This document shows positions 4,295 through 60,405 of a stretch of 64,000 nucleotides of DNA, piece by piece. The notes beneath the pieces are model-generated. The model saw nothing but the letters and a program-made list of their open reading frames with translations. It searched no databases and was not told the origin of the DNA. Made by a program: the position numbers and the translations under genes. Position 1 is the stretch's first letter. Every line of letters starts with the position of its first letter. This DNA is from Minisyncoccia bacterium (GTDB lineage Bacteria > Patescibacteriota > Minisyncoccia > 2-02-FULL-40-12 > IGHO2-01-FULL-4-A): the NCBI GenBank assembly GCA_050015375.1, contig JBEKBN010000005.1, forward strand, positions 1,858 to 65,857. Reading direction: 5' to 3'.

Positions 4295-4412
4295 CCCGTT
4301 AGAAGTAGCTAAAACTAAATACTATAAGCAATTTACGATTAATAATTATGGCTATTTCTAACGGATATCTAAATAAAGTACGGAAATGTAAACATTTCCT
4401 ACTTCTAACGGG
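4295..4412. mobile_element. MITE-like palindromic element (CCCGTTAGAAG termini), 118 bp, TSD ATGAA
   Basis: Terminal inverted repeats cccgttagaagtag / ctacttctaacggg. Flanks atgaaT and ATGAAc. The right TSD copy supplies the start codon of the next gene. Confidence 0.7.
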
Positions 4413-4943
4413 ATGAACAAAGATATCATCGCATCAATCATATTCGGAGCCAGTTGTTTCATCTTTTTTTGGTTGGCCGTTCCGGTCTATGACAATATTT
4501 TAGATATCAAATCGGCCACCGCCGATATGCAATCATTGCTGTCAGAAAGGACGACCTTGCGCCAAAATGTCTCCAACCTGATGCAACAATACGAATCCAG
4601 AAGCGCCGAGATCGCCAAACTGATGATGTTTTTGCCGAACCAAAGCCGTTTGGACCAAATAATCGAAACCCTTCAATCAACGGCGGGTTCGACCGGCATT
4701 CAGATGAAAGACATGAGTCTTGCGTCACAGCCCAGCACCAATAATAGTCCCTACGTGGTAACGAATATCAAGATCGAGGTTTCGGGAAATTACGATTTGA
4801 TGGTCAATTATATGAAACAACTTGAGCAAAGTTTACGGATCTATGATGTCACCGAGATCAGCATCGCCCGGAATCAGCAGGCTCCTCTGGCGGCTAACCT
4901 GTTCAATATCGAGATCAAAGCCAATACTTATAGTTTAAATTAA
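4413..4943 (+). CDS. pilO: PilO-like pilus assembly protein
   Basis: N-terminal TM helix plus coiled coil; position between the pilN-like gene and pilB. Confidence 0.55.
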   Translation: MNKDIIASIIFGASCFIFFWLAVPVYDNILDIKSATADMQSLLSERTTLRQNVSNLMQQYESRSAEIAKLMMFLPNQSRLDQIIETLQSTAGSTGIQMKDMSLASQPSTNNSPYVVTNIKIEVSGNYDLMVNYMKQLEQSLRIYDVTEISIARNQQAPLAANLFNIEIKANTYSLN

Positions 4944-4944
4944 A

Positions 4945-5253
4945 ATGGACGGCACACCGGTAAAAAATAAAAAAGGGAATTCGAGTTTGTTCATTCAGAT
5001 CGCCATCATCTTTTTGGGCCTCGTCGGCGGCTATATTTATTATTCCCAGATCATCAAACCGGCGAAGACGGCCGTTACTTTGCCTGATATCCCCAGGTCC
5101 GACACCTTGAACAAGTTTCAGGATTTCAGTTCCTATAACTTTGGGATTTTGAACGACCCGACCTTCAAATCCCTCAAAATTCTCGGCAATATTCCGATCC
5201 AGCCCGGCGTTACCGGAAGAACCGATCTTTTCGCCCCGCTAATTAGCGAATAG
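4945..5253 (+). CDS. Small membrane-anchored protein (possible PilP-like)
   Basis: 102 aa, one TM helix, operon position only. Confidence 0.35.
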   Translation: MDGTPVKNKKGNSSLFIQIAIIFLGLVGGYIYYSQIIKPAKTAVTLPDIPRSDTLNKFQDFSSYNFGILNDPTFKSLKILGNIPIQPGVTGRTDLFAPLISE

Positions 5254-5340
5254 TGATCAGCCAATAGCGAATAGCAATTCGTGAATTGGAAATAGCAGCT
5301 AATAACTATCGGCTAATGACTGTCCGCTATTTGCTACCCC

Positions 5341-7140
5341 ATGGCTTTCAAAACCCCATCAATTTTAGTTGATGAACTCATCAAAAGCGGCCTTTTGACC
5401 GAAGAATCATCGGTTGCCCTTGAACAAGAAGCGGCCGACGGCAATAAGGATTTCGGCGAAGTTCTCATCGACCGCGGCGTCATCACAGACGAAGATCTTC
5501 TGAAGATCAAGTCGAGGATCTATCAATTGCCGATCATTGATATCGTCAATGTCGAGATCAACCGCGAACTTTCCAAAGAGATCTCCGACGAGGTCATCAA
5601 TTTTTACAAGATCATTCCTTTTGCCAAGAGCAACGGCGTTCTTAAGGTGGCCATGATCAACCCCGAAAACATCAACGCCCTTGAGGCCCTGAAATTTCTG
5701 GCGTCCGATCGTGGCCTGATCCCCGAGAAATACCTGATAACTTACAAGGACTTTGGCGCTTTGAGCCGGAGTTATCAAACGTTGGGTACCGAGGTCGGCA
5801 AAGAACTTGAAAATCTATCGGAAGAAAATACTCAAAAAAATCTACAGATCACCGACAAGACCGGCGGTCTGGAACAGATCACGGCTGAAGCGCCGGTCAC
5901 CCGGATCGTGGCCGTCATCGTCAAGCATGCCGTTGAAACGCGGGCTTCCGACATTCACCTCGAACCGTTCGAAGACAAGATCCGGCTGCGGTTCCGGGTT
6001 GACGGCTTACTCCATACAACCTTGACCCTGCCCATTAATTTGCAATCGGCCATCGTTACCCGCATAAAAATTCTTGCCGATATGAAGATTGACGAGACCC
6101 GTCTGGCTCAAGACGGCCGGTTCTCAACGAAGATCGGCGACAGGCGGATTGATTTCCGGGTTTCAACCTTTCCGACAAGAAATGGCGAGAAAGTCGTGAT
6201 GAGGATCTTGGACCCGTTGGTTGGCAATGTCGAGTTAACCGACCTGGGGCTTGAAGGCAGATCGCTGGAACTCGTCATCGAAAATATCGGCAAGCCGTTT
6301 GGCGCCGTTCTGATCACCGGTCCGACCGGTTCGGGCAAATCCACGACCTTAGCCGCCATTTTGAGAAAGATCAACGACGACGAGATCAATGTCGTTACCC
6401 TTGAAGACCCTATCGAATATTATGTCGAGGGTGTCAATCAATCCCAGATCCACGAAGAGATCGGTTACACTTTCGCCAGCGGTTTGCGCCACATTTTACG
6501 CCAAGACCCCGATGTCATCATGGTCGGCGAAATTCGCGACGGCGAGACGGCGCAATTAGCGGTCCAGGCCGCTTTGACCGGCCATGTCGTCCTGTCAACT
6601 TTGCATACCAACGACACCATCGGCGTCATCCCTCGGCTCATTGACATGGGCGTTGAGAAATATTTGATCGCGCCGACGATGAACTTAGCTTTGGCCCAGA
6701 GATTACCTCGTAAACTTTGCAACGCCTGCAAGGTGAAGGTCAAGGCCTTGGACTCCGAGGCCGAAATGATCAGGCGGGCGATCGCCGATATGCCGACCGA
6801 TGCCCGGAGGGATCTGCCCAAAAATGATTTTGAATTGTTCAAACCCAGCCCCAGCGGTTGCCGCGAATGCAACAACCGGGCTTACAAAGGCCGGATCGGG
6901 ATTTTTGAGACATTGGCCATGACCGATGAACTGGAAAATATCGTCTTGACCGATATTTCCGAAGCCAGGTTGAGAGAGGAAGCGAAACGACAGGGGATGA
7001 TTACCATGTTCCAAGATGGTATAATAAAAGTTCTGCGGGGCGTCACGTCGCTCGAGGAGCTTTTGACCGTGGCTCAAGAAGCGGCGGATGATGAGTTGGA
7101 TGCGCCGGTGAAAACACCAGCGGGAAATTCGAAGAAATGA
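5341..7140 (+). CDS. pilB: Type IV pilus assembly ATPase PilB (GspE family)
   Basis: 599 aa. N-terminal GSPII domain, Walker A LITGPTGSGKSTTLAAIL, tetracysteine motif CNACK...CRECN. Confidence 0.9.
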   Translation: MAFKTPSILVDELIKSGLLTEESSVALEQEAADGNKDFGEVLIDRGVITDEDLLKIKSRIYQLPIIDIVNVEINRELSKEISDEVINFYKIIPFAKSNGVLKVAMINPENINALEALKFLASDRGLIPEKYLITYKDFGALSRSYQTLGTEVGKELENLSEENTQKNLQITDKTGGLEQITAEAPVTRIVAVIVKHAVETRASDIHLEPFEDKIRLRFRVDGLLHTTLTLPINLQSAIVTRIKILADMKIDETRLAQDGRFSTKIGDRRIDFRVSTFPTRNGEKVVMRILDPLVGNVELTDLGLEGRSLELVIENIGKPFGAVLITGPTGSGKSTTLAAILRKINDDEINVVTLEDPIEYYVEGVNQSQIHEEIGYTFASGLRHILRQDPDVIMVGEIRDGETAQLAVQAALTGHVVLSTLHTNDTIGVIPRLIDMGVEKYLIAPTMNLALAQRLPRKLCNACKVKVKALDSEAEMIRRAIADMPTDARRDLPKNDFELFKPSPSGCRECNNRAYKGRIGIFETLAMTDELENIVLTDISEARLREEAKRQGMITMFQDGIIKVLRGVTSLEELLTVAQEAADDELDAPVKTPAGNSKK

Positions 7141-7225
7141 GGATGGTTAGTAGTGAGTAGTGAGTAGTGAGTAGAAAATAAAACAGAAACTACCAACTAC
7201 TAACTACCAACTACAAACTAGTTCC

Positions 7226-8302: not shown

Positions 8303-8322
8303 TTTTCTAAAATAATTTTTCC

Positions 8323-10371: not shown

Positions 10372-10387
10372 ATCCTAAACTTCAAAA

Positions 10388-10418: not shown

Positions 10419-10445
10419 GCATCCGCCGACTTTGTTCTATAATGA

Positions 10446-11228: not shown

Positions 11229-11239
11229 AAACAATGAAT

Positions 11240-11434
11240 CCCGTTAGAAGTCACCCTAATCCCGTTAGAGAGCGTAAACCAATCAAAAGTTTTAAACAAA
11301 ATGGTTTATGCCACCTATTCGGGACTCTCTAACGGGACTAACGGGTTCGCGAATTAAAATTATATGTAAAAAGTTAACTGTTAGCAGGTTGTATAACTTA
11401 TGTAATTAACTATGCAACAGTGACTTCTAACGGG
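11240..11434. mobile_element. Nested MITE-like elements: outer 195 bp (CCCGTTAGAAG termini, TSD ATGAA) containing an inner GAGAG-subfamily copy at 11261..11336
   Basis: Outer TIR cccgttagaagtcac / gtgacttctaacggg flanked by atgaaT and ATGAAa. Inner cccgttagagagcg / ctctctaacggg. Confidence 0.7.
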
Positions 11435-11845
11435 ATGAAAACGGAGATTTCGCCAAAACAAGTCATATTGGCAGCCGTGGCAGTGATCATTATTGGGGTT
11501 GGTTTTAGTTTGATAAAGACCAGTTTTAACAAGGGCCAGGTTCAGAACCAGCAAGCCGCCCTCGTCCTTTATTTCGACCAGACCCAAAAACGGATATTTG
11601 AAGGCGATGTTACTGACAACATGTCGGTTTTGCAGGCGCTCTACGCTTCTTCTTTGGCCGGAAATTTTGATTTCCGCTATTCCGTCGAAAAGTCCGGCAA
11701 GATCCAGCTTTACAAGATCGGCGACAAGATCAATGATCTTGGCGGCCAATGGTATTTTTACCTCAACGGCAATCCCATAAATATCGGAGACATTGACCTG
11801 CAAAAAATAAACAAAGGCGACTTAATTGAGGCAAAATATCAATAA
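11435..11845 (+). CDS. Hypothetical membrane-anchored protein
   Basis: The ORF track starts at 11420 inside the MITE. The ATG at 11435 is the duplicated target ATGAA. One TM helix. Confidence 0.5.
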   Translation: MKTEISPKQVILAAVAVIIIGVGFSLIKTSFNKGQVQNQQAALVLYFDQTQKRIFEGDVTDNMSVLQALYASSLAGNFDFRYSVEKSGKIQLYKIGDKINDLGGQWYFYLNGNPINIGDIDLQKINKGDLIEAKYQ

Positions 11846-11860
11846 TAATTCGGGGCTTGC

Positions 11861-11938
11861 CCTGTTAGAGAGTGCAAAATTATTCGGGCGTTTTTTTTGT
11901 TCACAATTTTTCAATTATCAAAAGGACTCTCTAACAGG
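11861..11938. mobile_element. MITE-like element, GAGAG subfamily, 78 bp, TSD GCTTGC
   Basis: cctgttagagagtgc / ggactctctaacagg flanked by gcttgc on both sides. Confidence 0.7.
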
Positions 11939-11951
11939 GCTTGCCCCTCAC

Positions 11952-12563
11952 TTGAAAGCGATTTTAAAAAAAACGCCGCTTTTCGGCTGGTCGTTTTCAA
12001 GCGAGGGGTTCTCATTAGTTGAAATACTCGTTGTCACGACTATTATAGTCATCCTCTCGACGTTGATGGTTTTTAATTTCCGGTCATCGTCCACCAATAC
12101 CACCAGCCGCCATCAGGTGGCTTCGGTCATTGTCGCCGACATCAGAGAACTCCAGGCCCGGGCTTTAGCCGGAATTTCAGCGACCGGGACGATCGTTTGC
12201 GGCTACGGCATTCATTTTGTCAATTCCCAGAGCTATCTGACCTTTACGCGCCAACCGGATCCGGTGTTATGTTCAAAAACCGACGACCGGAAATTTGGCG
12301 CCGGCAACGACCAGGTTCTGGATACCAAGATCGTCGGTAATCCGAATTTTGCCATCCAAACGACCTCCGGTTGGGACAACAGCGACATTTATTTCGAACC
12401 GCCCGACCCGACGACATACATAAACAACGAGAAAACCGTCGCCGGCAATATTGAGCCCTCCGAGACCATATTGATAGTTCGCTCCAACGATCCAAGCGAT
12501 CTGTCTTCGAGCACCATAACCGTTTATGCGTCTGGAAAAATAGACATAACCGATTCGCAATGA
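11952..12563 (+). CDS. Minor pilin / pseudopilin
   Basis: ...SSEG | FSLVEILVVTTIIVIL prepilin N-terminus. The ORF track extends to 11826 through the MITE; TTG 11952 is proposed as the start (uncertain). Confidence 0.6.
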   Translation: MKAILKKTPLFGWSFSSEGFSLVEILVVTTIIVILSTLMVFNFRSSSTNTTSRHQVASVIVADIRELQARALAGISATGTIVCGYGIHFVNSQSYLTFTRQPDPVLCSKTDDRKFGAGNDQVLDTKIVGNPNFAIQTTSGWDNSDIYFEPPDPTTYINNEKTVAGNIEPSETILIVRSNDPSDLSSSTITVYASGKIDITDSQ

Positions 12564-13165
12564 CCCAGATGGAAAGATCAAAAGAAAAGGGGTTCACCCC
12601 GTTAGAGAGTGCAAAATCATTAGGACAATATTTTAGCGTGCGGTTTCGCAATTTCAAAAAGGACTCTCTAACGGGGTTCACCATGGTTGAGATCATCGTC
12701 ACCATTTTTATTTTGGGTTTGGCCCTGGCCGCTATTTATGGAATTTTGTCCGTTGACATGGCCAGCGCCACCGCCTCAAAAAACAATTACACCGCCAGCA
12801 TGCTGGCTCAGGAAGGAGTGGAATTGGTGAGAAATTTCAGGGATAGCGATTGGCTTGCCGGACGGGAATTTGGTTCGCTGGGAGGTTTAGGCGGACCAGT
12901 AGGCGATGGTACCTTTGCCGTTGAGTGGGATGGAACCACGCTTTTGCCGGCGGAGTTTGCCGATGAATATCTGGAGAAAGATTCGAACGGCGTCTTCTCA
13001 TATGATGGTGGCGGTGACACTCTTTTCAAAAGGGCGATTACTATTGATGAAACCACAGATCCGGGAGTTGAGATTATTGTAAGAGTTGATGTCACCTGGA
13101 CCGAAAGGGGACTGGATAAAAAATTATCCGCCGAAGATCATTTATTCAACTGGTACCAAAAATGA
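12560..13165 (+). CDS. Minor pilin with a MITE-encoded 28-aa insertion in the leader peptide
   Basis: MTQMERSKEKGFT[PLESAKSLGQYFSVRFRNFKKDSLTGFT]MVEIIV. The GFT...E cleavage site is regenerated after the insert. Confidence 0.7.
   Translation: MTQMERSKEKGFTPLESAKSLGQYFSVRFRNFKKDSLTGFTMVEIIVTIFILGLALAAIYGILSVDMASATASKNNYTASMLAQEGVELVRNFRDSDWLAGREFGSLGGLGGPVGDGTFAVEWDGTTLLPAEFADEYLEKDSNGVFSYDGGGDTLFKRAITIDETTDPGVEIIVRVDVTWTERGLDKKLSAEDHLFNWYQK
12598..12675. mobile_element. MITE-like element, GAGAG subfamily, 78 bp, TSD GTTCAC, in-frame in CDS
   Basis: cccgttagagagtgc...cactctctaacggg with 6-bp TSD; insert plus TSD is 84 nt (28 codons). Confidence 0.8.
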
Positions 13166-13788
13166 AAAAACCATTTCAAAAGGGCTTTACCCCGTTAGAG
13201 AGTGCAAGCTCAATCAAGAAATTTTTTAACGGACGATTTTGTAATTTTAAAAAGGACTCTCTAACGGGGTTTACATTGATCGAGGCCATAGTTTCCACAC
13301 TTATTTTCTCGATAATCTTGACTATCATCGGCGGCGCTTTCAGTTTGTTCCTGAACTCCCAAAGAAGAGCCATGAACATCCAGCAGGCGATCGAGAACTC
13401 CAACTTTATCTTCGAGTCCATGGCCAAAGAGATCAGGATGAGCACAATCCTCGATGTCGGCAACGACAATTGCCCGGGAACGTATTCGACGACTTTGAAC
13501 ATCGAGCATCCGATCAACGGCTTGGTTACTTACCAATGGGATAACGGCAATCTTTACCGGACCGTGAAAAATCAGACAACCAACGCAACGACCACGACGA
13601 TGCTGAATTCCGATTCGGTTCAATTGACCGGCTTCAAATTTTGCAAAATGGGCGTTGAAGTCGGCGACCAGATCCAGCAGAGGGTAACTATAATTTCGTC
13701 CGTTTCAACCAAGAACTCCAGTGACCAGCAAGCGGTCGTTGATGTTCAAACCACGATTTCCACGAGAAATCTGGAAACAAATCCATGA
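13162..13788 (+). CDS. Minor pilin with a MITE-encoded leader insertion
   Basis: MKKPFQKGFT[PLESASSIKKFFNGRFCNFKKDSLTGFT]LIEAIV. Confidence 0.7.
   Translation: MKKPFQKGFTPLESASSIKKFFNGRFCNFKKDSLTGFTLIEAIVSTLIFSIILTIIGGAFSLFLNSQRRAMNIQQAIENSNFIFESMAKEIRMSTILDVGNDNCPGTYSTTLNIEHPINGLVTYQWDNGNLYRTVKNQTTNATTTTMLNSDSVQLTGFKFCKMGVEVGDQIQQRVTIISSVSTKNSSDQQAVVDVQTTISTRNLETNP
13191..13268. mobile_element. MITE-like element, GAGAG subfamily, 78 bp, TSD (c/g)TTTAC, in-frame in CDS
   Basis: Same termini as 12598..12675; identical 78-bp length. Confidence 0.8.
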
Positions 13789-14132
13789 GCATAAATAACC
13801 CATCCAAAAAAAGATCGGACTCCGGCGTCGCCCTTTTGTTCACGATATTAATGATCGGCATTTTGCTCTCGATCATTTTGGTTTTGTCGAATATTTTTGC
13901 CATCAAGCTCAAACTGTCGGCTGAAACGAGGTACTCGGTCAGCGCCTATTACGCCGCCGAGAGCGGTGTTGAATACTGCCTGTACCTGAGAACATCGCCG
14001 ACTCCGGTTCCGGACCCGCCGGTTCTGGATAACGGCGCGACCTTTGATACCGGCGATACTTGCGCTTCCGGCAACATTAGATCGGTAGGTTCTTTCCGGA
14101 ATGTTTCCCGAGCCATCGAGATCTCATACTAG
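13785..14132 (+). CDS. PilX-N-like pilus-associated protein
   Basis: SDSGVALLFTILMIGILLSIILVL, the PilX N-terminal hydrophobic pattern. Four genes are linked by ATGA overlaps. Confidence 0.45.
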   Translation: MSINNPSKKRSDSGVALLFTILMIGILLSIILVLSNIFAIKLKLSAETRYSVSAYYAAESGVEYCLYLRTSPTPVPDPPVLDNGATFDTGDTCASGNIRSVGSFRNVSRAIEISY

Positions 14133-14133
14133 C

Positions 14134-14199
14134 CCCGTTAGAAGTCCGGTTCACAGATTTGAGCCGGCAGAAGCCCGTGCGCTTCTTGCTTCTAACGGG
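14134..14199. mobile_element. MITE-like element (CCCGTTAGAAG termini), 66 bp, immediately after a stop codon
   Basis: cccgttagaagtcc...gcttctaacggg starting 2 nt after TAG at 14130..14132. Confidence 0.6.
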
Positions 14200-14276
14200 G
14201 GGAGTTATGAACACCTAGCAATGCCAAAAACTGCGGGTGTGATAAAATATAACTACCAGGAAATGAAAAATTAAAC

Positions 14277-14972: not shown

Positions 14973-15302
14973 TTGTTTTTGTGCTATAATAGAAATAGAA
15001 ATATGAAAATACCCGATTTCCTAAAAAAATACTTTTGGGATGTTGATTTTAACGGTCTCGATGCCAACACACATTCGCTTTTTATCGTTGAAAGAATATT
15101 AGAATACGGAGACGAAACCGCAACGAGTTGGATGCTGGATAATTTCAGCAAAGAGCAAATAAAGCAAACATTGCTGGAAAGAAAGGGTTTTTCGAAAAAA
15201 AGCGCTAACTATTGGTCTTTGATTTTAAATATACCTAAAGATAAAATTTCATGTTTGAACAGGTCTTACCAGCAGATGCAAAAAAGTCATTGGCCATATT
15301 AG
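14973..15302 (+). CDS. Hypothetical protein, upstream partner of the AbiEii-like gene
   Basis: 109 aa, low GC. Overlaps the next ORF by 52 nt in another frame. Confidence 0.4.
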   Translation: MFLCYNRNRNMKIPDFLKKYFWDVDFNGLDANTHSLFIVERILEYGDETATSWMLDNFSKEQIKQTLLERKGFSKKSANYWSLILNIPKDKISCLNRSYQQMQKSHWPY

Positions 15303-15874
15303 GCAAGAGCGGATTACTGAATGGCGCTTATCTGGCCGGCGGCACAGCTCTAGCCCTACAAATAGGACACAGGATTTCTGTTGATTTTGATTTTTTCACT
15401 CCGGAAGAATTTGACGAAAATATTCTAGTTCAACGGATGCAAAAAACAATTCCTGATTTTAAATTGGATAGGATGGAATGGGGAACCATTTTGGGATATA
15501 TTGGAGAAACCCGTTTCAGTTTGTTTTTTTACAATTATCCTCTTCTTTTCAAAACTCACGATTTCATGGGAGTTAAAATCGCAGACATAAAAGATATCGC
15601 CCCCATGAAAATAGCGGCCATATCGGACAGGGGGACGAAAAGAGATTTTATTGACTTATTTTTTTTAATAGAAGAGGAGAAAACATTGACGCTGGAAGAA
15701 GCGCTTGAGTTATATGATAAAAAATTCGGGTTACTTAAACAAAATAGAATTCATATACTGAAAAGCTTGGTCTATTTTGACGATGCCGAAAAAGGGGGAG
15801 AGCCCAAAATGATAAAAGACATATCTTGGGATAAAATAAAAAAAAGAATCGCAGAATTGGCGTTGGCTCAATAA
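15251..15874 (+). CDS. Nucleotidyltransferase, AbiEii/AbiGii toxin-like family
   Basis: AYLAGGTALALQIGHRISVDFDFFT, the characteristic GG(T/S)AL...D.DF NTase motif of this family. Confidence 0.65.
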   Translation: MFEQVLPADAKKSLAILGKSGLLNGAYLAGGTALALQIGHRISVDFDFFTPEEFDENILVQRMQKTIPDFKLDRMEWGTILGYIGETRFSLFFYNYPLLFKTHDFMGVKIADIKDIAPMKIAAISDRGTKRDFIDLFFLIEEEKTLTLEEALELYDKKFGLLKQNRIHILKSLVYFDDAEKGGEPKMIKDISWDKIKKRIAELALAQ

Positions 15875-28072: not shown

Positions 28073-28077
28073 TTTTC

Positions 28078-28112
28078 GTTCCATTATGAACATATGTTCG
28101 TAATGGAACGAA
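28078..28112. repeat. 34-bp near-perfect palindrome (cgttccattatgaacatatgttcgtaatggaacg)
   Basis: Partner palindrome at 28712..28746. The pair brackets the PaaX-like gene. Confidence 0.8.
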
Positions 28113-28218: not shown

Positions 28219-28695
28219 TTGCGTTTGGTAGAAGGTGCGATAAAAGAATTGTCCGGCAAGAATAAAAGAAAAGAATGGAACAAGATCAATCAAACCTTAC
28301 GGTATCTTAAGAAAAAGCGACAAGTTCAGATAATAACCCGCGATATTAATAGTGTTGGTTTAAAGATTACTGACGAGGGTCGGAAAATTGCGGATTTTGT
28401 CGATGTCACGAATCTAAAACTTCGAAAAAATTCCATTTGGGATGGGAAATGGAGGATTGTTATATTTGACGTCCCCAACGACAAAAGCAAGAATCGCTTA
28501 GCTTTTATTAGAGAGTTAAAGGACCTTGGTTTTATAATGGTTCAACGAAGTGTCTGGGCTTATCCTTATGAGTGCCGAAAAGAAGTTGAGATAATTAGGA
28601 ATTATTTTGAAATAGGCAAATTTGTAACATATATTGAATCTTCGGAAATCGAAGATGGCCACCTTTGGTTAAAACGATTCAAGGAAACAGTTTAG
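28219..28695 (+). CDS. PaaX-family-like small regulator (Cas2-like fold motif)
   Basis: WDGKWRIVIFDVPNDKSKNRLAFIRELKDLGFIMVQRSVWAYP matches the PaaX C-terminal pattern. TTG start. Confidence 0.5.
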   Translation: MRLVEGAIKELSGKNKRKEWNKINQTLRYLKKKRQVQIITRDINSVGLKITDEGRKIADFVDVTNLKLRKNSIWDGKWRIVIFDVPNDKSKNRLAFIRELKDLGFIMVQRSVWAYPYECRKEVEIIRNYFEIGKFVTYIESSEIEDGHLWLKRFKETV

Positions 28696-28711
28696 GTAAA
28701 AACCACATTCA

Positions 28712-28746
28712 TTCCATAATGAACATATGTTCATTATGGAATGAAG
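28712..28746. repeat. 34-bp perfect palindrome (cattccataatgaacatatgttcattatggaatg)
   Basis: Same core as 28078..28112. Confidence 0.8.
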
Positions 28747-29111: not shown

Positions 29112-30590
29112 ATGGATTTGAAAAATCTGACAATCAAATCATTGCGCGACGGCTACGCCAAAAAAGAATTCACACCCGAAGAGATCCAGAAGGAGTTTTT
29201 GAAATTGATAGAGAAAGAAAATCCGAAACTCAACGTTTTCTTGTCTGTTTCCGAGAATCTCACCCATGATTCAAAATTCATGATTCATGATTCAATTCTT
29301 ACCGGTGTTCCATGCGCGATCAAGGATAATATTATGACCAAGGATTCGATCACCACCGCCGGCTCAAAAATTCTGAAGCATTACAAAGCGCCATACGATG
29401 CTACGGTGATCAAACTTTTGAAAAAACACGGAGCGATTTTTTTGGGCAAAACAAATATGGACGAATTTGCCATGGGTTCGACCACCGAAAATTCCGCTTT
29501 CGGGCCGACGAGAAATCCTCATGACCATGATCGCGTTACCGGCGGTTCATCAGGCGGTTCGGCGGCGGCTGTGGCTTCGGGGATGGCCGTCTTTGCTCTT
29601 GGTTCGGATACCGGCGGTTCGATCCGGGCGCCGGCATCTTGGTGCGGAGTTGTGGGTTTGAAGCCGACTTACGGAAGAGTTTCGCGCTACGGTCTCATTG
29701 CTATGGCTTCCAGTTTGGACCAGATAGGACCCATTACCAAAAATGTAGAAGACGCGGCCATTGTCATGAACGCCATTGCCGGCCACGATTCGATGGATTC
29801 AACGAGTTCACCCCCACACTCAAAATTTGAGTGTGGGGGCGAGCCAAAAGACACCCCCGATTTCACGAAAAATCTTGGCAAATCCATCAAAGGATTAAAA
29901 ATCGCCATCGCCAAAGAATTTTTCGGTTCACCTCCACACTCAGCGACTGAGTGTGGGGGCAAGGGTTTGAATTCAGAAGTGGCCGATGCCATCGAGAAAG
30001 CGATTTCAAAACTCCAATCCCAGGGCGCTCATATTGACTATGCCAGTTTGCCGTTGACGGACTATTCCATTGCTGTCTATTATATAATCGTGCCGGCGGA
30101 AATTTCAGCGAACCTGGCAAGGTTCGATGGCATCCGTTACGGCCATTCGTCGGTGAAAGGTAAAAATCTGCTTGACACCTATCTTGATTCCCGCGAGGAA
30201 GGTTTTGGCGCCGAGGTCAAACGCCGGATAATGCTCGGCACTTATACTTTGTCAGCCGGTTATTATGATGCTTATTATTTGAAAGCCCAAAAAGTCCGGA
30301 CTCTTATCAGACAAAGTTTTGACAAAATTTTTGAACATTATGACGCCATTATCGGTCCGACCATGCCTACGATCGCGCCTAAGATCGGGGAATACAACGA
30401 CCCATTGACTTTTTACATGGCTGATATTTACACCTGCCAGGCGAATCTGGCCGGACTGCCGGCGATTTCCGTGCCTTGCGGGTTCATTGAAACCGGTGGC
30501 AAAAAACTTCCGGTCGGTTTGCAGATCATCGGCAAACATTTTGACGAAGAAACGATTTTACGAATAGCCAATGCTTACTCGAATTCATAA
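29112..30590 (+). CDS. gatA: Asp/Glu-tRNA amidotransferase subunit A (amidase signature)
   Basis: GGSSGGSAAAVA amidase signature. Start taken at MDLKNLTIK. Contains two in-frame palindrome inserts. Confidence 0.9.
   Translation: MDLKNLTIKSLRDGYAKKEFTPEEIQKEFLKLIEKENPKLNVFLSVSENLTHDSKFMIHDSILTGVPCAIKDNIMTKDSITTAGSKILKHYKAPYDATVIKLLKKHGAIFLGKTNMDEFAMGSTTENSAFGPTRNPHDHDRVTGGSSGGSAAAVASGMAVFALGSDTGGSIRAPASWCGVVGLKPTYGRVSRYGLIAMASSLDQIGPITKNVEDAAIVMNAIAGHDSMDSTSSPPHSKFECGGEPKDTPDFTKNLGKSIKGLKIAIAKEFFGSPPHSATECGGKGLNSEVADAIEKAISKLQSQGAHIDYASLPLTDYSIAVYYIIVPAEISANLARFDGIRYGHSSVKGKNLLDTYLDSREEGFGAEVKRRIMLGTYTLSAGYYDAYYLKAQKVRTLIRQSFDKIFEHYDAIIGPTMPTIAPKIGEYNDPLTFYMADIYTCQANLAGLPAISVPCGFIETGGKKLPVGLQIIGKHFDEETILRIANAYSNS
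29811..29839. repeat. 29-bp perfect palindrome cccccacactcaaaatttgagtgtggggg, in-frame in gatA
   Basis: Encodes SPPHSKFECGGEP. Confidence 0.85.
29931..29959. repeat. Palindrome cctccacactcagcgactgagtgtggggg (same family), in-frame in gatA
   Basis: Encodes SPPHSATECGGKG, 120 bp from the first copy. Confidence 0.8.
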
Positions 30591-31142: not shown

Positions 31143-32806
31143 TGCTACACCGTTCTCAAGTTTTTTTGCTGATCATGCTGGCCTTCATCAGCGGTATTTT
31201 TTTGGGCTCGTTCGTTTCGGTTGATCAAAAATATGTTTGGATCGCCATAGCGATCTGCGCGGCCGCGGTCGCTGTTTTTTTTCGGCGCGACTCCAAGCTT
31301 CTTCGTCCGAAGGTCGCTTTTTACGCTTTTTTGGCCCTGATCTTCCTGTTCGGTTTTTCCCGCATCAACACCACGAACTCTGAAAAACATTTGCTCCAAG
31401 AATTCGCCAAAGCCGCCGCCAACATCAAAGATCCTTCAGGTAAACACAAAGTTAAGATTGACCTCATCGGCTATATCAACAACGAACCATCCCGCGGCGC
31501 CAAAATGCAATCATTTGTTTTTAAATCGAAGGAATTGATCTCTGGCAATTACTCCGCCGATACCGATGAAAGCGTTTTGGTCAACACCGATTTTTTTCCG
31601 GAGTACAAATATGGCCAAAAACTCGAGATCTACGGAGAATTGCAATTGCCGTCGAGCACGGCCAGCCCCCACACTCAAAATTTGAGTGTGGGGGCCAGTT
31701 CCTCGATGGACCCCGTTAGAGGCAAGACACCGTCCCAGGTGTCTGCCGACACGCCTTCGGCGGGGCGGGCCTCTAACGGGGTGGATTACGCCGCTTATCT
31801 CGCCAAAGATGATATTTTCACGACGATGTATCAGCCGATGATAAGACAGGTTGATTTCAATTTTTCTTTTTTTGAAAAATATAAAGTTGCGATTTTGCAA
31901 AAAATATTCACTTTCAAATCGGCTTTTGAAACAGCCGTAAGCAAAGCCATTCCCGAACCCAACGCCGCTTTCGTCAACGGAATTTTGCTTGGCAGTCGAG
32001 CCCAAATTCCGGATGCTCTCAAAAATGATTTTGCCATCACCAGCACAACCCACATTCTGGCCATCTCCGGTTTCAATATTACCATCGTCGCCGGAATTCT
32101 CGCTTCATTTTTTCTTTTCTTTTTCAAACGCCGGACGGCATTCTGGTTCGCCATCGCCGGCATCGCACTTTTCACGATCCTGACTGGCGCCCAGGCCTCG
32201 GTCATTCGGGCGGCGATCATGGGCTGTTTGTTCTTGCTGGCAACGCGAGTTGGTAGGCCTTACACTGCCCGAAACGCCGTAATATTCGCCGGCGCCTTGA
32301 TGGTTTTGCTAAGCCCGGAAATTTTACGATACGATGTAGGTTTTCAGCTTTCTTTCATGGCAACTTTGGGTCTGATATATCTCTGTCCGTTTTTCACCGA
32401 CAAATTCAAAAAGATCACAAATTTTTTCGGTCTGCGAGAGAATCTAGCCATGACATTATCGGCGCAAATTGCCGTTCTTCCTCTTCTGATATTTTATTTC
32501 AACCGATTGTCAATTGTTTCTCTGCCAACAAATCTTCTGGTCTTGCCGATGGTGCCCCTGGCGATGCTCTTGGGTTTCGTCGCCGGATTGGCCGGGATGA
32601 TCTTGCCATTTTTGGGCGTCATTATCGGATATTTCGCCTGGTTTTTGACTGCGATACAGCTCTGGTTGGTGGAATTTTTTGCCAAGCCGTCATGGGCGGC
32701 GCCGGCGGTTGCTTTTCCGTGGTATGCTTTGGCGATAACTTATGTGGTCATGATTTTTGTGATCTACAAATGGATTTATGCTCGGCCCAAACCAAAACAA
32801 AAATGA
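31142..32806 (+). CDS. comEC: ComEC/Rec2 competence protein, membrane channel part (DUF4131 plus competence domain)
   Basis: Multi-TM. ATG 31142 (MLHRSQVFLL) is preferred over the track start at 31016. Contains one palindrome and one MITE in-frame. Confidence 0.75.
   Translation: MLHRSQVFLLIMLAFISGIFLGSFVSVDQKYVWIAIAICAAAVAVFFRRDSKLLRPKVAFYAFLALIFLFGFSRINTTNSEKHLLQEFAKAAANIKDPSGKHKVKIDLIGYINNEPSRGAKMQSFVFKSKELISGNYSADTDESVLVNTDFFPEYKYGQKLEIYGELQLPSSTASPHTQNLSVGASSSMDPVRGKTPSQVSADTPSAGRASNGVDYAAYLAKDDIFTTMYQPMIRQVDFNFSFFEKYKVAILQKIFTFKSAFETAVSKAIPEPNAAFVNGILLGSRAQIPDALKNDFAITSTTHILAISGFNITIVAGILASFFLFFFKRRTAFWFAIAGIALFTILTGAQASVIRAAIMGCLFLLATRVGRPYTARNAVIFAGALMVLLSPEILRYDVGFQLSFMATLGLIYLCPFFTDKFKKITNFFGLRENLAMTLSAQIAVLPLLIFYFNRLSIVSLPTNLLVLPMVPLAMLLGFVAGLAGMILPFLGVIIGYFAWFLTAIQLWLVEFFAKPSWAAPAVAFPWYALAITYVVMIFVIYKWIYARPKPKQK
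31666..31694. repeat. Palindrome cccccacactcaaaatttgagtgtggggg, in-frame in comEC
   Basis: Flanked by (g)ccag on both sides. Confidence 0.85.
31711..31781. mobile_element. MITE-like element (CCCCGTTAGAGGC termini), in-frame in comEC, TSD TGGA
   Basis: ccccgttagaggc...gcctctaacgggg. Confidence 0.7.
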
Positions 32807-37872: not shown

Positions 37873-38335
37873 GTTACTACGAAATTACGAATCTTTACGA
37901 ATATACGAATGGAATTGAAGAGAAAAGATCTTATACTTCCAGAACTAAGCTATAAAATTATAGGAGTATTGTTCGATGTTTTCAATTACTTAGGTTACGA
38001 ATATAGAGAAAAGTATTATCAAAGAGCGATTGCGAAAGCATTCAAAGAAATAAGAGTAAATTTTAAAGAGCAGGTATACTCGCCAATTGAATACAAAGGA
38101 GAAAATATTGGTGGTTATTTTTTCGACTTTTTAGTAGAAAACAAAATTATTCTTGAAATTAAAAGAGGAGACAATTTTTCTTCAAACGATATATCACAAA
38201 TTCTTTCTTACTTGAAAAAATCAAAATTACAGCTTGGTATCCTCGCACGTTTTTCAAGTAAAGGTTTGAAGTATAGGAGGATTGTTAATATAAATTGATT
38301 CGTATATTCGTAGCAATTCGTAATTTCGTAGTAAC
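37873..38335. mobile_element. 463-bp low-GC cassette with about 38-bp terminal inverted repeats carrying a GxxExxY gene, inserted between rpsG and fusA
   Basis: Left gttactacgaaattacgaatctttacgaatatacgaat; right attcgtatattcgtagcaattcgtaatttcgtagtaac, its reverse complement. Confidence 0.7.
37909..38298 (+). CDS. GxxExxY-family protein (PD-(D/E)XK-like)
   Basis: LGYEYREKYYQRAI motif, AT-rich. Confidence 0.7.
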   Translation: MELKRKDLILPELSYKIIGVLFDVFNYLGYEYREKYYQRAIAKAFKEIRVNFKEQVYSPIEYKGENIGGYFFDFLVENKIILEIKRGDNFSSNDISQILSYLKKSKLQLGILARFSSKGLKYRRIVNIN

Positions 38336-40444: not shown

Positions 40445-40459
40445 CTCGCCTCCGTTTTG

Positions 40460-40650
40460 AAAATCCCGGACCAGGCTCACCGGATTGCTTTCCGGGGACT
40501 TAGGAAATCCCAGCGAGATTTCCGTCATCCGGTTGTCAGTTGCCGTCACTGATTGACGGCTTTTTGATTTCACAAAAAGCCGTCAATCAGACCCTGCCGA
40601 CGGCACCGACAACGGCCCCTGAAAGCAATCCGGTTCGCAGGGATTTTCAA
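40460..40650. repeat. 191-bp palindromic repeat element, copy 1 (about 98% identical to 53025..53215)
   Basis: Arms aaaatcccggaccaggctcaccggattgctttccgggga...cccctgaaagcaatccggttcgcagggatttt. Centre carries a bidirectional terminator-like hairpin gattgacggctttttgatttcacaaaaagccgtcaatc. Confidence 0.85.
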
Positions 40651-45587: not shown

Positions 45588-45613
45588 CCCCACGCTCACG
45601 CGTGAGTGTGGGG
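45588..45613. repeat. Palindrome ccccacgctcacgcgtgagtgtgggg (variant of the CCCCCACACTC family), intergenic
   Basis: One mismatch between arms. Confidence 0.6.
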
Positions 45614-53018: not shown

Positions 53019-53024
53019 TTAATT

Positions 53025-53215
53025 AAAATCCCGGACCAGGCTCACCGGATTGCTTTCCGGGGACTTAGGAAATCCCAGCGAGATTTCCGTCATCCGGTTG
53101 TCGGTTGCCGTCGCTGATTGACGGCTTTTTGATTTCACAAAAAGCCGTCAATCAGACCCTGCCGACGGCACCGACAACGACCCCTGAAAGCAATCCGGTT
53201 CGCAGGGATTTTCAA
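53025..53215. repeat. 191-bp palindromic repeat element, copy 2
   Basis: Inserted at the centre of a pre-existing palindrome gcaaaaagtagttaatt | aattaactactttttgc that includes the kinase stop codon. Confidence 0.85.
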
Positions 53216-54101: not shown

Positions 54102-54129
54102 CCCCCACACTCAAATTTGAGTGTGGGGG
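54102..54129. repeat. Palindrome cccccacactcaaatttgagtgtggggg, intergenic
   Basis: Family member; see 29811..29839. Confidence 0.85.
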
Positions 54130-56563: not shown

Positions 56564-56690
56564 TCGCCTGATCGCTGGAATATTATTGAAGTCCGGAAAT
56601 GATGCGGGCCTGCCTAAATCTTCTCAACTGACACCGCCGAGTTTGCAGGTGAGCGGCTTAGACACAAAAAAGCCACCCATTCGGATGGCG

Positions 56691-56969
56691 TTACGACCGG
56701 GATTCAAGATCGCCCAATAATCTAGAAATCTCATCGTCTAATCCAAAGCCTATGTAAGGTTCTTTGACCCTTATTTTAGCTAGCCGAATAATTACCCCCT
56801 GTAAATCATTTTCGGGTATTGTCATTTCTCGCATCACATGAATGAGGGTTCGGGTCGTATGCTGAATAGTGATGTGATTGATACGATTACTGGTTAGGGA
56901 CAGGTTATGCATTATTCTTGAAACAATAACCTCGTGAGGCGATTTTTTCTCATATATTATATTCGGCAT
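56691..56969 (-). CDS. Hypothetical protein
   Basis: 92 aa, low GC. Confidence 0.3.
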   Translation of the reverse strand: MPNIIYEKKSPHEVIVSRIMHNLSLTSNRINHITIQHTTRTLIHVMREMTIPENDLQGVIIRLAKIRVKEPYIGFGLDDEISRLLGDLESRS

Positions 56970-57299
56970 GATTTCCTCATTTAGATTAAAGAACTGGCGA
57001 CATCATCGTCGCAAATACTTTATATGCCAAACCCGAAAAAAATACAAGAAGGCGATACGGATGTTTAGGAATGCGGATGAACGAAGCCGATTAATCCCTG
57101 CGAACCCTGGTTCCTTTGGAGGGCACTGCCAGTCCCGTCGAGCAAGGTTTTTCTTGAGCTGTAATCAGCAAAAGAAAATCGACGGGATCTGGCAATGAGC
57201 GGAGATTTCGAAAGACAAAGACCTCGCAGGGGTCATAGAGTCGAAGCGTCCCGACAAAGGGACTAGGGTGAGCCCAGGTCGGGGATTGATCGGCTCGCG

Positions 57300-58265
57300 C
57301 TAGATCTTGATTTCCACCACATCCCCGTCCTGGATGAGATAATCCTTGCCGACGGTGTGGATTTTGCCGTGGGTTTTGGCGGCAGACCAGGAGCTGGCGG
57401 CCAGAAGTTCGCGCCAATTGATTACATCGGCGCGGATGAATTTTTGCTCAAAATCAGTGTGAATGGCCCGGGCGGCACGGGGGATGAAGTCGCCGCGCTT
57501 CGCCGTCCAGGCTCGGGTCTCGTCTTCGCCGGTGGTCAGGAAAGTAACGAGATCCAATGTCTCATAGGATTTTTTTATCAACGAGTCAAGTCCGCTTTGA
57601 CTAATTTCCAATTCCTCCATGAATAACGCTTGCTCATCGGGCGCGGATTCCGAAAGCGTCAGTTCGAATGTTCCGCACAGAATGACGAACTCGTCTTTTC
57701 CAACCGCTCCCAATATTTTTTCATCCGGCCGCCACTTATTTTTTATCTGTTCTTCGGAAGCGTTGAAAACATAAATGATCTTTTTATCGGTCAAAAGGTC
57801 AAGTTTCGGCAGTTCCTCTTTGCCTTTCTTTTTCGCGTCTCGTTTTTCTTTTGTCTCCAGATCGGCGAGCGCCAACTCGGTATTGATAACTCCGATATCA
57901 TTGGCTGGATCTATTTTCTTATGAACATGGAGTATTTTTTCATTTTCAAAAACTCGGACGACTTCGGCAATGGCATCCACTTCGCGGATGTTGGCCAGAA
58001 ATTTATTACCTAGACCTTCGCCTTGAGCCGCGCCTTTGACCAGGCCGGCAATGTCAATGAATTCTATCGCCGTCGGAATTATCTTCGCCGAATGAGACAT
58101 CTTGGCCAATAAATCCAACCGTTCGTCTGGGACGGCAACAACGCCCACATTCGGATCAATGGTTGTGAAAGGATAGTTCTGGATATCAACTTGTTTTTTC
58201 GTCAGGGCCTTGAAAAGCGTTGACTTTCCCACATTTGGTAGGCCCACGATGCCGATAGAGAGCAT
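57300..58265 (-). CDS. ychF: Ribosome-binding ATPase YchF (Obg family)
   Basis: [19 protein letters not shown] plus C-terminal TGS domain. Confidence 0.9.
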
Positions 58266-58317
58266 GTTTATAAGTGGTTATTGATTATGTTTTCAATGGA
58301 TGATATCATGAAAATAT

Positions 58318-58645
58318 GAGTGGCGTGGGTGTTAACCTGTGCCATTCCGGAGTAGGTAGTACCTTTTCTTGAGTGGACAGTTCTGACGGCGAAAGGTAGG
58401 GTAGCTTATGAATGTACGCACTTTGCTAAACACTCTATTTCACAGTGGTTTAGCTTCGAATACGGTGGAGACGATCGCCTAAGCATATAACGAGCGGCCT
58501 CGAGCCCTTTAGGTGATTTGCTCTCATTGTCCGCACGCCGGCCCTTCAATATTCGGTGTGCGGCCCGCTATCATTTGTTCTTTTTTACAAGTTTTTCACG
58601 GTTCGATCCCGTAGCCCGGCATACCATAGCCGGGCTTCCTTTTTA
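58318..58645 (+). ncRNA. Tandem structured element 1 (about 330 nt) with its own terminator and a 24-codon mini-ORF (58408..58482)
   Basis: Conserved boxes agtggcgt, ccggagtagg, hairpin tccgcacgccggcc..caatattcggtgtgcggcccgc, terminator gcccggc-ataccatag-ccgggc plus T5. Confidence 0.35.
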
Positions 58646-58723
58646 ATCATATCTTCTTTTGCCGGAGAGCATATTTATAACTGGTTATTGCTCTGATTCA
58701 TATAGTTTGATATTATTGAAATG

Positions 58724-58987
58724 CAGTGGCGTTAGTGTTAGATTGACGCCGTTGCGGAGTAGGCGTTACCCGCGAGAACTGGGAGAAAAAAGGGAGAATT
58801 GCCTATGAATGCGTTTAACAGCTTTACGGTGGAGTTCATCGCCTAGGATCGCTATCCAGTAAGGATGATGAAATTTCCAAGTCCGCACGCCGGCCTACAA
58901 TATTCGGTGTGCGGCCCGCCATCATCGCTCTTTCATATATTTTCTTTCTTATTAAGGCCGAGACCAGTTCTCGGCTTTGCCTTTTTT
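58724..58987 (+). ncRNA. Tandem structured element 2, paralog of 58318..58645, with a 13-codon mini-ORF (58805..58846) and terminator
   Basis: Same conserved boxes; terminator gccgaga-ccagt-tctcggc plus T6. Confidence 0.35.
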
Positions 58988-59016
58988 ATAATCTCATATT
59001 CTGATAAAATATCAAT

Positions 59017-60405
59017 ATGATATACAACTCGGAAATTTTCAGGGCATACGATATCAGGGGAATTTATGACAGGGATTTTGATGATGAATTCGCGGTCGCA
59101 TTGGGCAAGGCGGCGGTAGAATATTTCAAAGCCGGGAAAATTCTGGTTGGCCATGATAGCCGGGCATCATCGCTGGCTTTGGCCGGAAAATTATCCGAAA
59201 GTTTAACCGGTTTTGGCTGTGATGTGGCGAGTATCGGTCTGGTCACCACGCCGTTTTTCAATTTTGTCCTTTCCAGCATTAAGCCCGACGCCGGCATCAT
59301 GGTTACCGCTTCGCACAACCCGACCGAATACGGCGGTTTCAAGATCTACGACGGTTCGGGAACAATAATTGGCCTGACAGCGGGGCTTGGCGAGATAAAA
59401 AAGATAATTGATCCCGTTAGAGACCTCGCCCGCGCTGGCGCGCCCGGAGGGCCTATGGGGCGGGCTGTCTCTAACGGGGTTGATTCCGGAAATTTTAAAA
59501 CCGCCGACAAAAAGGGCGAATATTTAAAAGTTCCCGTGGCAGAACTCCTGCAAAAATACACAAACCGTATCGTTACCGGTTCAAAGTTGAGGAAAGGTGA
59601 GCTCAGCAATCTCAAATTTAATATCACCGGCCGGAAAAGTGTTATGGCCGAAGTCGAGTTGATACTGAAGAAATTGGATTTGCGATTGACACCCAACGGC
59701 TTTGACATCGCTTTTTCTTTTGACGAGGATTCGGACCGTTTGATAGTCATGGATTCCGCCGGCAACAAGATAGGCACCGATTTCGTCGTCGGTTTGTTGG
59801 CGAAAAATTCGGTCAGGTTCTTGTCAAAACCGAAAGTCGTCTACGATGTCCATTTTTCCAAAGGCGTCATCGGCAAATTCAAAGAGTGGGGGATAAAGTC
59901 ATACAGATCAAAAGTCGGCCGGTTCTATCTTCGCGATGCCATGGTAAAACACCGCGCCGATATCGGCGGCGAGATCTCCGGCCATATCTATTTCAAAGAA
60001 AATAACCGCAATGAATTGCCGCTTCTGGCTTTGTTGCGGCTTTTGAGAATTTTAGCCGCCAGTAAAATGAGCATCAACGAAATGATTAAGCCATTCCAGA
60101 CATGGTTCAGTTCCGGCCGGCTGGATTTCAGGGTCAACAATCTGCAGACCGCCAGAGAATTAATAAAAAAAATCGCGGGCAAATATCCCGACGGCCAAAA
60201 GGACGAATTAGACGGCATTACCATCGAATACACCGACCCGGAAAAAATAGACAACCTGACGCCGGACAAATTTTGGTGGTTCAATCTCCGTGCTTCCAAC
60301 ACCGAACCGGTTCTCCGTCTCATCGTTGAGGCGAAAAACGCCGACTTATTGAAAGAAAAGGTCGGCGAGATCTCGCAAATTATTGAAGAAAAAAATGCCG
60401 CGTAG
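59017..60405 (+). CDS. Phosphomannomutase/phosphoglucomutase (alpha-D-phosphohexomutase)
   Basis: Active-site TASHNPTEYGGFK. Confidence 0.85.
   Translation: MIYNSEIFRAYDIRGIYDRDFDDEFAVALGKAAVEYFKAGKILVGHDSRASSLALAGKLSESLTGFGCDVASIGLVTTPFFNFVLSSIKPDAGIMVTASHNPTEYGGFKIYDGSGTIIGLTAGLGEIKKIIDPVRDLARAGAPGGPMGRAVSNGVDSGNFKTADKKGEYLKVPVAELLQKYTNRIVTGSKLRKGELSNLKFNITGRKSVMAEVELILKKLDLRLTPNGFDIAFSFDEDSDRLIVMDSAGNKIGTDFVVGLLAKNSVRFLSKPKVVYDVHFSKGVIGKFKEWGIKSYRSKVGRFYLRDAMVKHRADIGGEISGHIYFKENNRNELPLLALLRLLRILAASKMSINEMIKPFQTWFSSGRLDFRVNNLQTARELIKKIAGKYPDGQKDELDGITIEYTDPEKIDNLTPDKFWWFNLRASNTEPVLRLIVEAKNADLLKEKVGEISQIIEEKNAA
59413..59479. mobile_element. MITE-like element (CCCGTTAGAGAC termini), in-frame in the phosphohexomutase gene, TSD TTGAT
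   Basis: cccgttagagacc...gtctctaacgggg flanked by ttgat on both sides. Confidence 0.7.

Follow-up and report, generated by a model that had tools for sequence, protein, structure and literature searches.

Rickettsia palindromic elements (RPEs) are small palindromic mobile repeats that insert in-frame in unrelated genes and are translated as extra peptides (PMC10969869). Correia/NEMIS, ERIC, RUP and BOX elements are non-autonomous, have terminal inverted repeats, fold into hairpins when transcribed, frequently share transcripts with genes and in some cases lie within genes (PMC10969869, PMC2229807). Repetitive extragenic palindromic sequences (REPs) are 20-40 nt long, lie outside genes, carry GTAG/CGTC tags and lack target duplications (PMC3733652). 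Here we characterize a family of short palindromic elements with nine copies in a 64-kb stretch of DNA (the window, meaning the whole stretch analyzed) from a metagenome-assembled genome (MAG) of Minisyncoccia (Patescibacteria/Candidate Phyla Radiation, CPR), part of a 72-kb contig. The window comprises a type IV pilus cluster (pilM, N, O, B, T, C, pilin, pilD, minor pilins) followed by housekeeping genes. A preliminary description of this DNA read the copies as non-autonomous MITEs (transposable elements of the miniature inverted-repeat kind). Their size, terminal inverted repeats, duplications, nesting and in-frame copies were verified, and we arrive at the same reading, with a probability of roughly 80%, that the copies are a non-autonomous DNA transposon family whose insertions are tolerated by the host.

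The 9-mer CCCGTTAGA has 16 exact matches in the window versus 0.40 expected, a count reached by none of 100 shuffles. All 16 are arms of inverted pairs, CCCGTTAGA...TCTAACGGG, and a ninth pair with one mismatch (ends CCTGTTAGA) lies at 11861-11938. These pairs delimit the nine copies listed earlier, whose coordinates were right to within 1 nt:

Copy 1, 4294..4413 (core 4295-4412), unstranded: 118-nt AT-rich core between pilN and pilO; duplication TGAA at 4290-4293 and 4414-4417; terminal A (4413) doubles as the first base of the pilO ATG.
Copy 2, 11239..11435 (core 11240-11434), unstranded: outer long element, 195-nt core (~113 nt minus the nested copy), between pilD and gene 11435; duplication TGAA at 11235-11238 and 11436-11439; terminal A is the A of the downstream ATG.
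Copy 3, 11260..11337 (core 11261-11336), unstranded: 76-nt core nested in copy 2; CTAA at 11256-11259 and 11338-11341.
Copy 4, 11860..11939 (core 11861-11938), unstranded: 78-nt core, degenerate at its ends (CCTGTTAGA / TCTAACAGG), duplication CTTG; upstream of the minor pilin gene that ends at 12563, or in an extended leader of that gene.
Copy 5, 12597..12676 (core 12598-12675), plus strand: 78-nt core, duplication TTCA; in-frame in a prepilin leader, KGFT[PLESAKSLGQYFSVRFRNFKKDSLTG]FTMVEI.
Copy 6, 13190..13269 (core 13191-13268), plus strand: 78-nt core, duplication TTTA; in-frame at the same leader position of the next pilin paralogue, KGFT[PLESASSIKKFFNGRFCNFKKDSLTG]FTLIEA.
Copy 7, 14133..14200 (core 14134-14199), unstranded: 66-nt core folding as a three-way junction, directly after the stop of the open reading frame (ORF) at 13785-14132; no recognizable duplication.
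Copy 8, 31711..31781 (core 31712-31780), plus strand: 69-nt core, 70% GC, three-way-junction class, duplication TGGA; in-frame in ComEC, SMD[PVRGKTPSQVSADTPSAGRASNG]VDY.
Copy 9, 59412..59479 (core 59413-59478), plus strand: 66-nt core, 74% GC, duplication TTGA; in-frame in phosphomannomutase, IID[PVRDLARAGAPGGPMGRAVSNG]VDS.

Interiors of the nine copies are mutually unrelated and range from 31 to 74% GC (46% in the window). Each copy nonetheless folds with a 12-13-bp terminal stem (z-scores -4.4 to -7.2). The bases directly inside the invariant 9-10 nt covary and lengthen the terminal stem to 12-21 bp, giving an element of the form 5'-Y-CCCGTTAGA(G/A)...(C/T)TCTAACGGG-R-3'. At 58-195 nt, the elements have no capacity to encode a transposase.

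An exact-end scan of one genome per species with the pattern CCCGTTAGAG-N38-68-CTCTAACGGG identified at least 119 loci, against an estimated ~17 chance matches in the whole collection. A looser re-scan of the listed 119 loci, together with the window, yielded 150 elements. Because CCCGTTAGA / TCTAACGGG served as the search key, invariance of these ends in collected copies is built in. The family is not confined to this locus: one copy lies just past the window (L120:15767-15877) and ~150 occur in other genomes with the same duplication signature. Minimal versions of 33-48 nt, consisting of ends and loop only, were also seen in tandem (L126:975-1130).

The preliminary description gave the target duplications as 5-6 bp. 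Duplications are indeed present in eight of nine copies, where they are perfect, but their length is 4 bp and the extra Y/R pair belongs to the element. The collected elements have the flank profile xTNNAY|CCCG...CGGG|RTNNAx, in which the two central flank bases tell a duplication from an extended palindrome. Against 16 expected for either kind of match, this dinucleotide agreed directly in 99 of 150 elements and as an inverted repeat in only 12. Identical 4-mers stood at -5..-2 and +2..+5 in 91 of 150, and positions -1 and +1 were complementary in 137 of 150 (C:G 96, T:A 41). Therefore, the element is Y-CCCG...CGGG-R and the duplication is TNNA, of fixed length as in MITEs. A 6-bp duplication was rejected as a general rule, with -6 equal to +1 in only 76 of 150 and -1 equal to +6 in only 69 of 150, and with a nested empty site (below) that fits 4 bp plus a T/A pair exactly. 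Insertion is at R|TNNA|Y sites with duplication of 4 bp.

Comparison of filled and empty sites bears out this anatomy. Nesting of copy 3 (11261-11336) within copy 2 (11240-11434), as noted earlier, is real, with the empty site preserved in a paralogue. An uninterrupted paralogue of copy 2 (~80% identity) lies upstream of the RNase J gene just past the window (L120:15767-15877). There the empty site reads CACC-CTAG-CGGGTCC, and its filled counterpart in copy 2 reads CACC-CTAA-T[CCCG...CGGG]A-CTAA-CGGGTTC, a difference explained by a 4-bp duplication and an element-borne T/A pair with zero extra changes. The un-nested form of copy 2 itself gave no match in a metagenome scan. Orthologues agree with the paralogue. 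The window's phosphomannomutase contains PVRDLARAGAPGGPMGRAVSNG and a duplicated VD, while its closest homologues by BLASTP (67% and 56% identity) have no insert. The ComEC insert PVRGKTPSQVSADTPSAGRASNG is absent from the four closest homologues (55-64% identity); five more distant ones carry different PV(R/K)...S(N/S)G inserts at exactly the position of copy 8. Since these different inserts share a position, and the site, GAY|TTY/ATG GAY, matches the target consensus, the ComEC site has been hit repeatedly or the element lost repeatedly. Several copies indicate recent activity, judged from sequence identity and arrangement: two identical 61-nt copies occupy different loci with independent TTCA flanks (L077), short elements are nested in long ones at L150, L215 and L218, and a Jorgensenbacteria MAG (L005, L031) has five near-identical copies, which may stem in part from pilin-gene duplication.

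Gene duplication or conversion of an element-bearing segment, or an assembly error, could in principle mimic transposition. Copies 5 and 6 do occupy the same position in adjacent paralogues, with similar tandem arrangements at L005 and L031, and individual tandem copies may have arisen by duplication or conversion. But the flanking repeats are identical within each pilin gene and differ between genes (TTCA versus TTTA), other copies reside in unrelated genes, and orthologues lack the inserts. An assembly artefact is excluded because ENA, JGI and Logan contigs, each from an independent assembly, contain the identical sequence. As a general account of the repeated copies, we regard this explanation as scarcely credible.

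The earlier statement that copies within coding sequences keep frame without stops proved correct for the four that are clearly intragenic (12598, 13191, 31712, 59413), all of which are multiples of 3 and stop-free. Copy 4 (11861) is likewise a stop-free multiple of 3 and is probably in a 5' untranslated region. In the wider collection, excision in silico restored an ORF (at least 50 codons on each side) for 32 elements, 24 of them multiples of 3. Most of the eight exceptions are upstream of genes or in spurious ORFs; L029 alone is convincingly intragenic and looks like a real disruption or an indel. Read-through is favored by the elements themselves, with ends that have a stop in only one of three frames and 1.70 stop-free frames per element versus 1.38 +/- 0.07 for shuffled interiors. 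Short copies (60-81 nt, mostly multiples of 3) would thus be translated as hydrophilic peptides, of the type PVRDK...SNG or PLE...LTG, in loops and N-termini.

Intragenic copies could alternatively escape translation, as small introns removed from mRNA or by programmed ribosome bypassing between the repeats. The compact hairpin and flanking direct repeats do resemble bypass elements such as those of T4 gene 60 and the mitochondrial byp elements. Neither removal nor bypassing requires that an insert be a stop-free multiple of 3 in the host frame, which the truly intragenic copies are. With the out-of-frame 'intragenic' copies lying mostly upstream of genes or in spurious ORFs, and L029 the sole convincing case among eight, we rejected RNA-level excision or bypass as very unlikely.

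Prepilin genes are a hot spot of in-frame insertion. Nine of 152 elements, from six genomes and including the copies at 12598 and 13191, are inserted exactly at G|FT(L/M)(I/V)E, whose codons GGN-TTY-ACN hold G|TTYA|C, a perfect target. Insertion here would duplicate GFT and lengthen only the leader, leaving the cleavage site beside mature pilin, and prepilin peptidase presumably removes or copes with the extended leader. Seven of the nine window copies are within the type IV pilus cluster, one is in comEC, and PilB/PilT loci recur among the listed 119. This proximity to competence machinery is what would be expected if the motif were a DNA uptake sequence, as in Neisseria and Pasteurellaceae. 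Such a sequence is a dispersed, single, lineage-specific motif without duplications. The present motif occurs solely as inverted pairs 57-195 nt apart, with duplications and empty sites, and is common to several phyla, the reverse of what a kin-recognition tag would be. The fit of the GFT motif to the target consensus accounts for the enrichment: copies concentrate in the pilus cluster, and PilB/PilT loci recur, because of the pilin hot spot and probably because pilus operon junctions are tolerant. We therefore rejected an uptake function, which seems to us hardly conceivable.

Many of the 60-69-nt copies, from various phyla, share one fold, in which a terminal stem of 12-13 bp encloses two 7-bp hairpins separated by a 1-3-nt linker. 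The copies at 14134 and 31712 belong to this three-way-junction class; the copy at 59413 folds differently. An oriented alignment of 18 short copies revealed double compensatory changes in 15 of 24 pairs. Because no G.U intermediates were found in the terminal stem (P1) or first hairpin (P2) of the short class, its palindromy appears to be maintained at the DNA level. Intragenic members are mostly read in one orientation and frame, as hydrophilic PVRDK...GR...PVSNG peptides.

A second, unrelated family of ~29-nt palindromes, CCCCCACACTCA-loop-TGAGTGTGGGGG, has at least three copies inside genes, where they are read through:

~29-nt palindromes, 29811-29840, 29931-29959 (inside amidase/GatA-like gene), 31669-31697, 45590-45611 and 54105-54126.

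The one in comEC (31669-31697) is 15 nt upstream of copy 8 and has CCAG on both sides, so that the gene gains 29 + 4 = 33 nt in frame. Two phosphomannomutase homologues contain insertions of other kinds (alignment A2, columns about 155-185 and 410-432), that of P0013 in the same surface loop as copy 9 and that of P0006 in a second loop, an alignment pattern that suggests recurrent insert acquisition in this enzyme.

A second mode of insertion involves start codons. Exactly at +1, 19 of 304 element ends had an ATG from which an ORF of 100 codons or more runs, compared with 18 of 4800 random positions. In these cases the left flank retains the original ATGNAY, and the element's last base (A or G) with the duplicated TG forms a new ATG or GTG. 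The earlier observation that two copies duplicating ATGAA supply the start codons of pilO and gene 11435 is accurate: copies 4295 and 11240 end exactly at the ATG and have another ATGAA on their left. The copy preceding the RNase J gene (L120:15767-15877) is of the same type.

Three long copies from other genomes have a common longer end, CCCGTTAGAARTNGCGGAC. A metagenome scan with this 20-mer as query returned at least 120 loci with 124 end occurrences (roughly 15 estimated by chance), and the figures that follow rest on the matches listed from it. A partner end, GTCCGCGTCCTATTTCTAACGGG, was 106-124 nt away in 100 of 124 occurrences, with modes of 115 and 118. ATG, GTG or TTG plus an ORF of at least 60 codons directly followed the right arm in 90 of these 100 and ran outward from the left arm in none. 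The downstream genes are unrelated (74 clusters from 86 proteins), with products that, by N-terminal sequence, look like dnaX, ychF, rplI, secY, nrdR, lysS, ftsW, ssb, pilB, prs, rnc and hpf. In 24 of 81 copies (~1.4 expected), a hexamer agreeing with TATAAT at five or more of its six positions ended 6-9 nt before the retained left ATG, the spacing predicted for leaderless transcription starting at the A of this ATG. From the left ATG, an upstream ORF was open through the element and stopped at the right-arm TAA (UAACGGGAUG), 4 nt before the rebuilt start, in 30 of 69 copies; six more had an AUGA overlap. Lengths that place the TAA in frame (L mod 3 = 1) were enriched (48 of 93). Interior frame 0 was open in 48 of 95 copies, compared with 19 and 27 for the other sense frames, 15.5 +/- 3.5 for shuffled interiors and only 12 of 95 for the corresponding frame in reverse orientation. 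In L149 and L157, with elements of 223 nt, the right arm of a long-class copy contains another, GC-rich palindrome of a different kind, CCTGCCCGCC...GGCGGGCAGG.

The terminal helix of the long class extends into the flanks, where -2/-1 pair with +2/+1, so that the real AUG has its A and U base-paired. Coupling of translation through RNA unfolding and/or re-initiation has been reviewed (PMC12548453), and the arrangement of ORF, helix and start codon suggests that the long class probably operates by ribosome unwinding and/or re-initiation of this kind. Translational coupling would account for survival of a single orientation before essential genes. Fixed orientation beside start codons suggests more than mere tolerance, namely selection acting on the mRNA or on translation.

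These properties invite the view that the elements, or at least the ~115-nt class, are host-beneficial cis-regulatory RNA leaders with two alternative helices, their transposition being secondary. Orientation among the listed long copies is fixed (90:0), length is tightly constrained and the start codon sits in the helix base. Moreover, an internal RRRUAGG can pair, with wobbles and as read from the alignment, with UCCUAUUU in the right arm, which excludes the terminal helix. Deviations of the terminal helix from Watson-Crick pairing were G.U in 27 cells and A.C in 2, an excess that with the RRRUAGG pairing is suggestive of RNA-level selection, but one inflated by a left arm fixed by the search pattern and by C-to-T bias in AT-biased genomes, for which the neutral expectation is roughly 57-69% G.U. 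Furthermore, the downstream genes are unrelated housekeeping genes with no regulon logic. Rfam 15, at gathering and E-value thresholds, had no match at any window element or in 14 long-class loci. The short class, with zero G.U in P1 and P2, fits palindromy at the DNA level, and the orientation bias would result equally from purging of insertions that close the upstream ORF, since frame 0 is open in only 12 of 95 in reverse. We therefore consider a primarily regulatory origin improbable and retain a MITE family as the better reading.

Under the MITE reading, a transposase acting in trans would make a 4-nt staggered cut, and the copies now visible would be those the host tolerates. In the start-codon mode, insertion would leave the original ATG on the left and rebuild ATG or GTG on the right from the element's last base and the duplicated TG. 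The ~115-nt subclass would be specialized for this mode and survive in one orientation only, with an ORF tending to stay open from the original, often leaderless, ATG to the right-end TAA 4 nt before the rebuilt ATG. Ribosomes translating this upstream ORF would unwind the AUG-sequestering helix and/or re-initiate at the rebuilt ATG. A further-reaching proposal is that the ~115-nt class is a mobile 'translational adaptor' for leaderless genes, a transposable 5' leader handing ribosomes on from the original 5'-terminal AUG to the rebuilt one, possibly with a switchable helix, and that the superfamily is moved between Patescibacteria, Omnitrophota and Planctomycetota by a transposase perhaps related to IS1380/piggyBac; we put this forward tentatively and hold it to be possible but doubtful.

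Several results weigh against a MITE family of this kind. No transposase was detected by Pfam among 30 ORFs of the window, as stated in the preliminary description. A search for an autonomous element, as long terminal-repeat pairs enclosing ORFs, found only neighboring short copies. Recurrent ORFs in ~1.6 Mb of loci (8-kb windows around short elements) belonged to housekeeping families only. A cognate transposase or autonomous element with matching ends and duplication was thus lacking in the window and the element-bearing loci searched, and mobilization is inferred from its footprints. The copy at 14134 has no flanking direct repeat. The correlations between -6 and +1 and between -1 and +6, though weak, leave room for some events with 5-6-bp duplication. 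For selfish MITEs it is unusual to find a 9-10-nt end conserved exactly from phylum to phylum along with internal hairpins that covary, a combination that could reflect host-level function. The coupling ORF is intact in only about half of long-class copies. It is not intact in the window genome's three long copies (4295, 11240, L120:15767), whose ends have diverged (AGAAGTCAC, AGAAGTAGC) and whose upstream ORF stops early; such copies must have another expression route, such as an internal promoter. Separately, unpaired ends were considered as traces of autonomous elements and rejected, as each had a degenerate partner or was a chance match (L143, L161).

By record titles, the 119 listed loci comprise ~72 from Patescibacteria (many classes), 19 from Planctomycetota, 11 from Omnitrophota and four from Nitrospirota, with single loci from Elusimicrobia, Ratteibacteria, Bdellovibrionales and delta-proteobacterial MAGs, two from one MAG labeled Gammaproteobacteria and six unclassified. 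One Methanosarcinales match lacks the flank signature and is probably due to chance. A scan of viral contigs for the element gave no matches. Our literature search found no paper on the motif, on MITEs in CPR, Omnitrophota or Planctomycetes, on RPE-like elements there, or on MITEs in pilin leaders. Collectively, the elements apparently constitute a large, unusually widespread and undescribed cross-phylum MITE superfamily.

If this reading holds, a very widespread mobile element family resides in the least-studied bacterial phyla, where it has shaped protein sequences by in-frame inserts in essential enzymes, ComEC and pilin leaders, and has reshaped the regions where translation of housekeeping genes begins, in genomes usually regarded as streamlined with little mobile DNA. 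The family would account for a class of puzzling inserts specific to a lineage, and of long extensions at the N-terminus of called genes, and the ends would serve as a sequence tag for tracing DNA exchange between phyla and uncultured lineages. The start-codon class would allow leaderless initiation and translational coupling to be studied in a natural setting, and the missing transposase is a concrete target for discovery.

Further features were seen in the window. A third MITE-like family is a ~192-nt palindromic element in two 98%-identical copies (about 40459-40650 and 53024-53215) with ends TTGAAAATCCC...GGGATTTTCAA and nested internal hairpins, one copy being apparently flanked by TTAA. 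At 37873-38335, 38-nt inverted repeats (92% complementary) flank a 129-aa ORF (37909-38298) encoding a PD-(D/E)XK nuclease (Pfam PDDEXK_3, E = 2e-27); its place in the str operon, between a presumed ribosomal protein S7 gene and fusA (EF-G), gives it the look of a small inserted gene cassette. Near-perfect 38-40-nt palindromes (TTCGTTCCATTATGAACAT / TTCATTCCATAATGAACATA type) at 28075-28112 and 28708-28745 bracket the ORF at 28219-28695 (PaaX central / Cas2-like domain) and could be operator sites. An AbiEii-type nucleotidyltransferase toxin domain is encoded at 15251-15874, adjoining several ORFs that matched nothing in Pfam and a pair of radical-SAM proteins (16-22 kb), a region that may be variable or defensive.

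Among described systems, our literature search found no MITE that has CCCGTTAGA ends, is spread across phyla, regenerates start codons or has a hot spot in prepilin leaders. Correia/NEMIS, ERIC, RUP and BOX elements share non-autonomy, inverted ends, hairpins and partly intragenic sites with the present family, but each is confined to a genus or family and has TA or other duplications. REP/BIME repeats, mobilized by RAYT, are likewise short, abundant palindromes with a conserved end motif and a variable hairpin; the present elements differ by having duplications and by being frequently intragenic. An integron attC site or an IS200-IS605-type hairpin was rejected on the presence of duplications and because the order GTTA/TAAC is the reverse of that in the attC layout. 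In anatomy only, CC(C) ends and a 4-bp TNNA duplication recall IS1380 (4-5 bp) and piggyBac (TTAA), and CCCGTTAGAAAG in some copies resembles the piggyBac end, CCCTAGAAAG; no such transposase was found near any copy, and the likeness is a lead and not a sign of membership. RPEs share in-frame insertion into protein-coding genes with read-through. Compared by description, RPEs are ~100-150 bp long and known only from Rickettsia and relatives, whereas the present elements are 58-120 nt long, with other ends, a 4-bp TNNA duplication, a range of several phyla and a start-codon mode. Mycobacterial interspersed repetitive units (MIRUs) were reportedly described by Supply et al. in 1997 as short intergenic repeats in one orientation whose small ORFs overlap or abut their neighbors, suggesting translational coupling. 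The ~115-nt class shares this oriented, ORF-coupled logic. MIRUs differ in being tandem and minisatellite-like, between operon genes, without terminal inverted repeats or duplications; the present elements consist of one hairpin unit each, have inverted ends and duplications, and go into the start codon itself. In function, the in-frame mode comes closest to RPEs, and the oriented, ORF-coupled mode to MIRUs.

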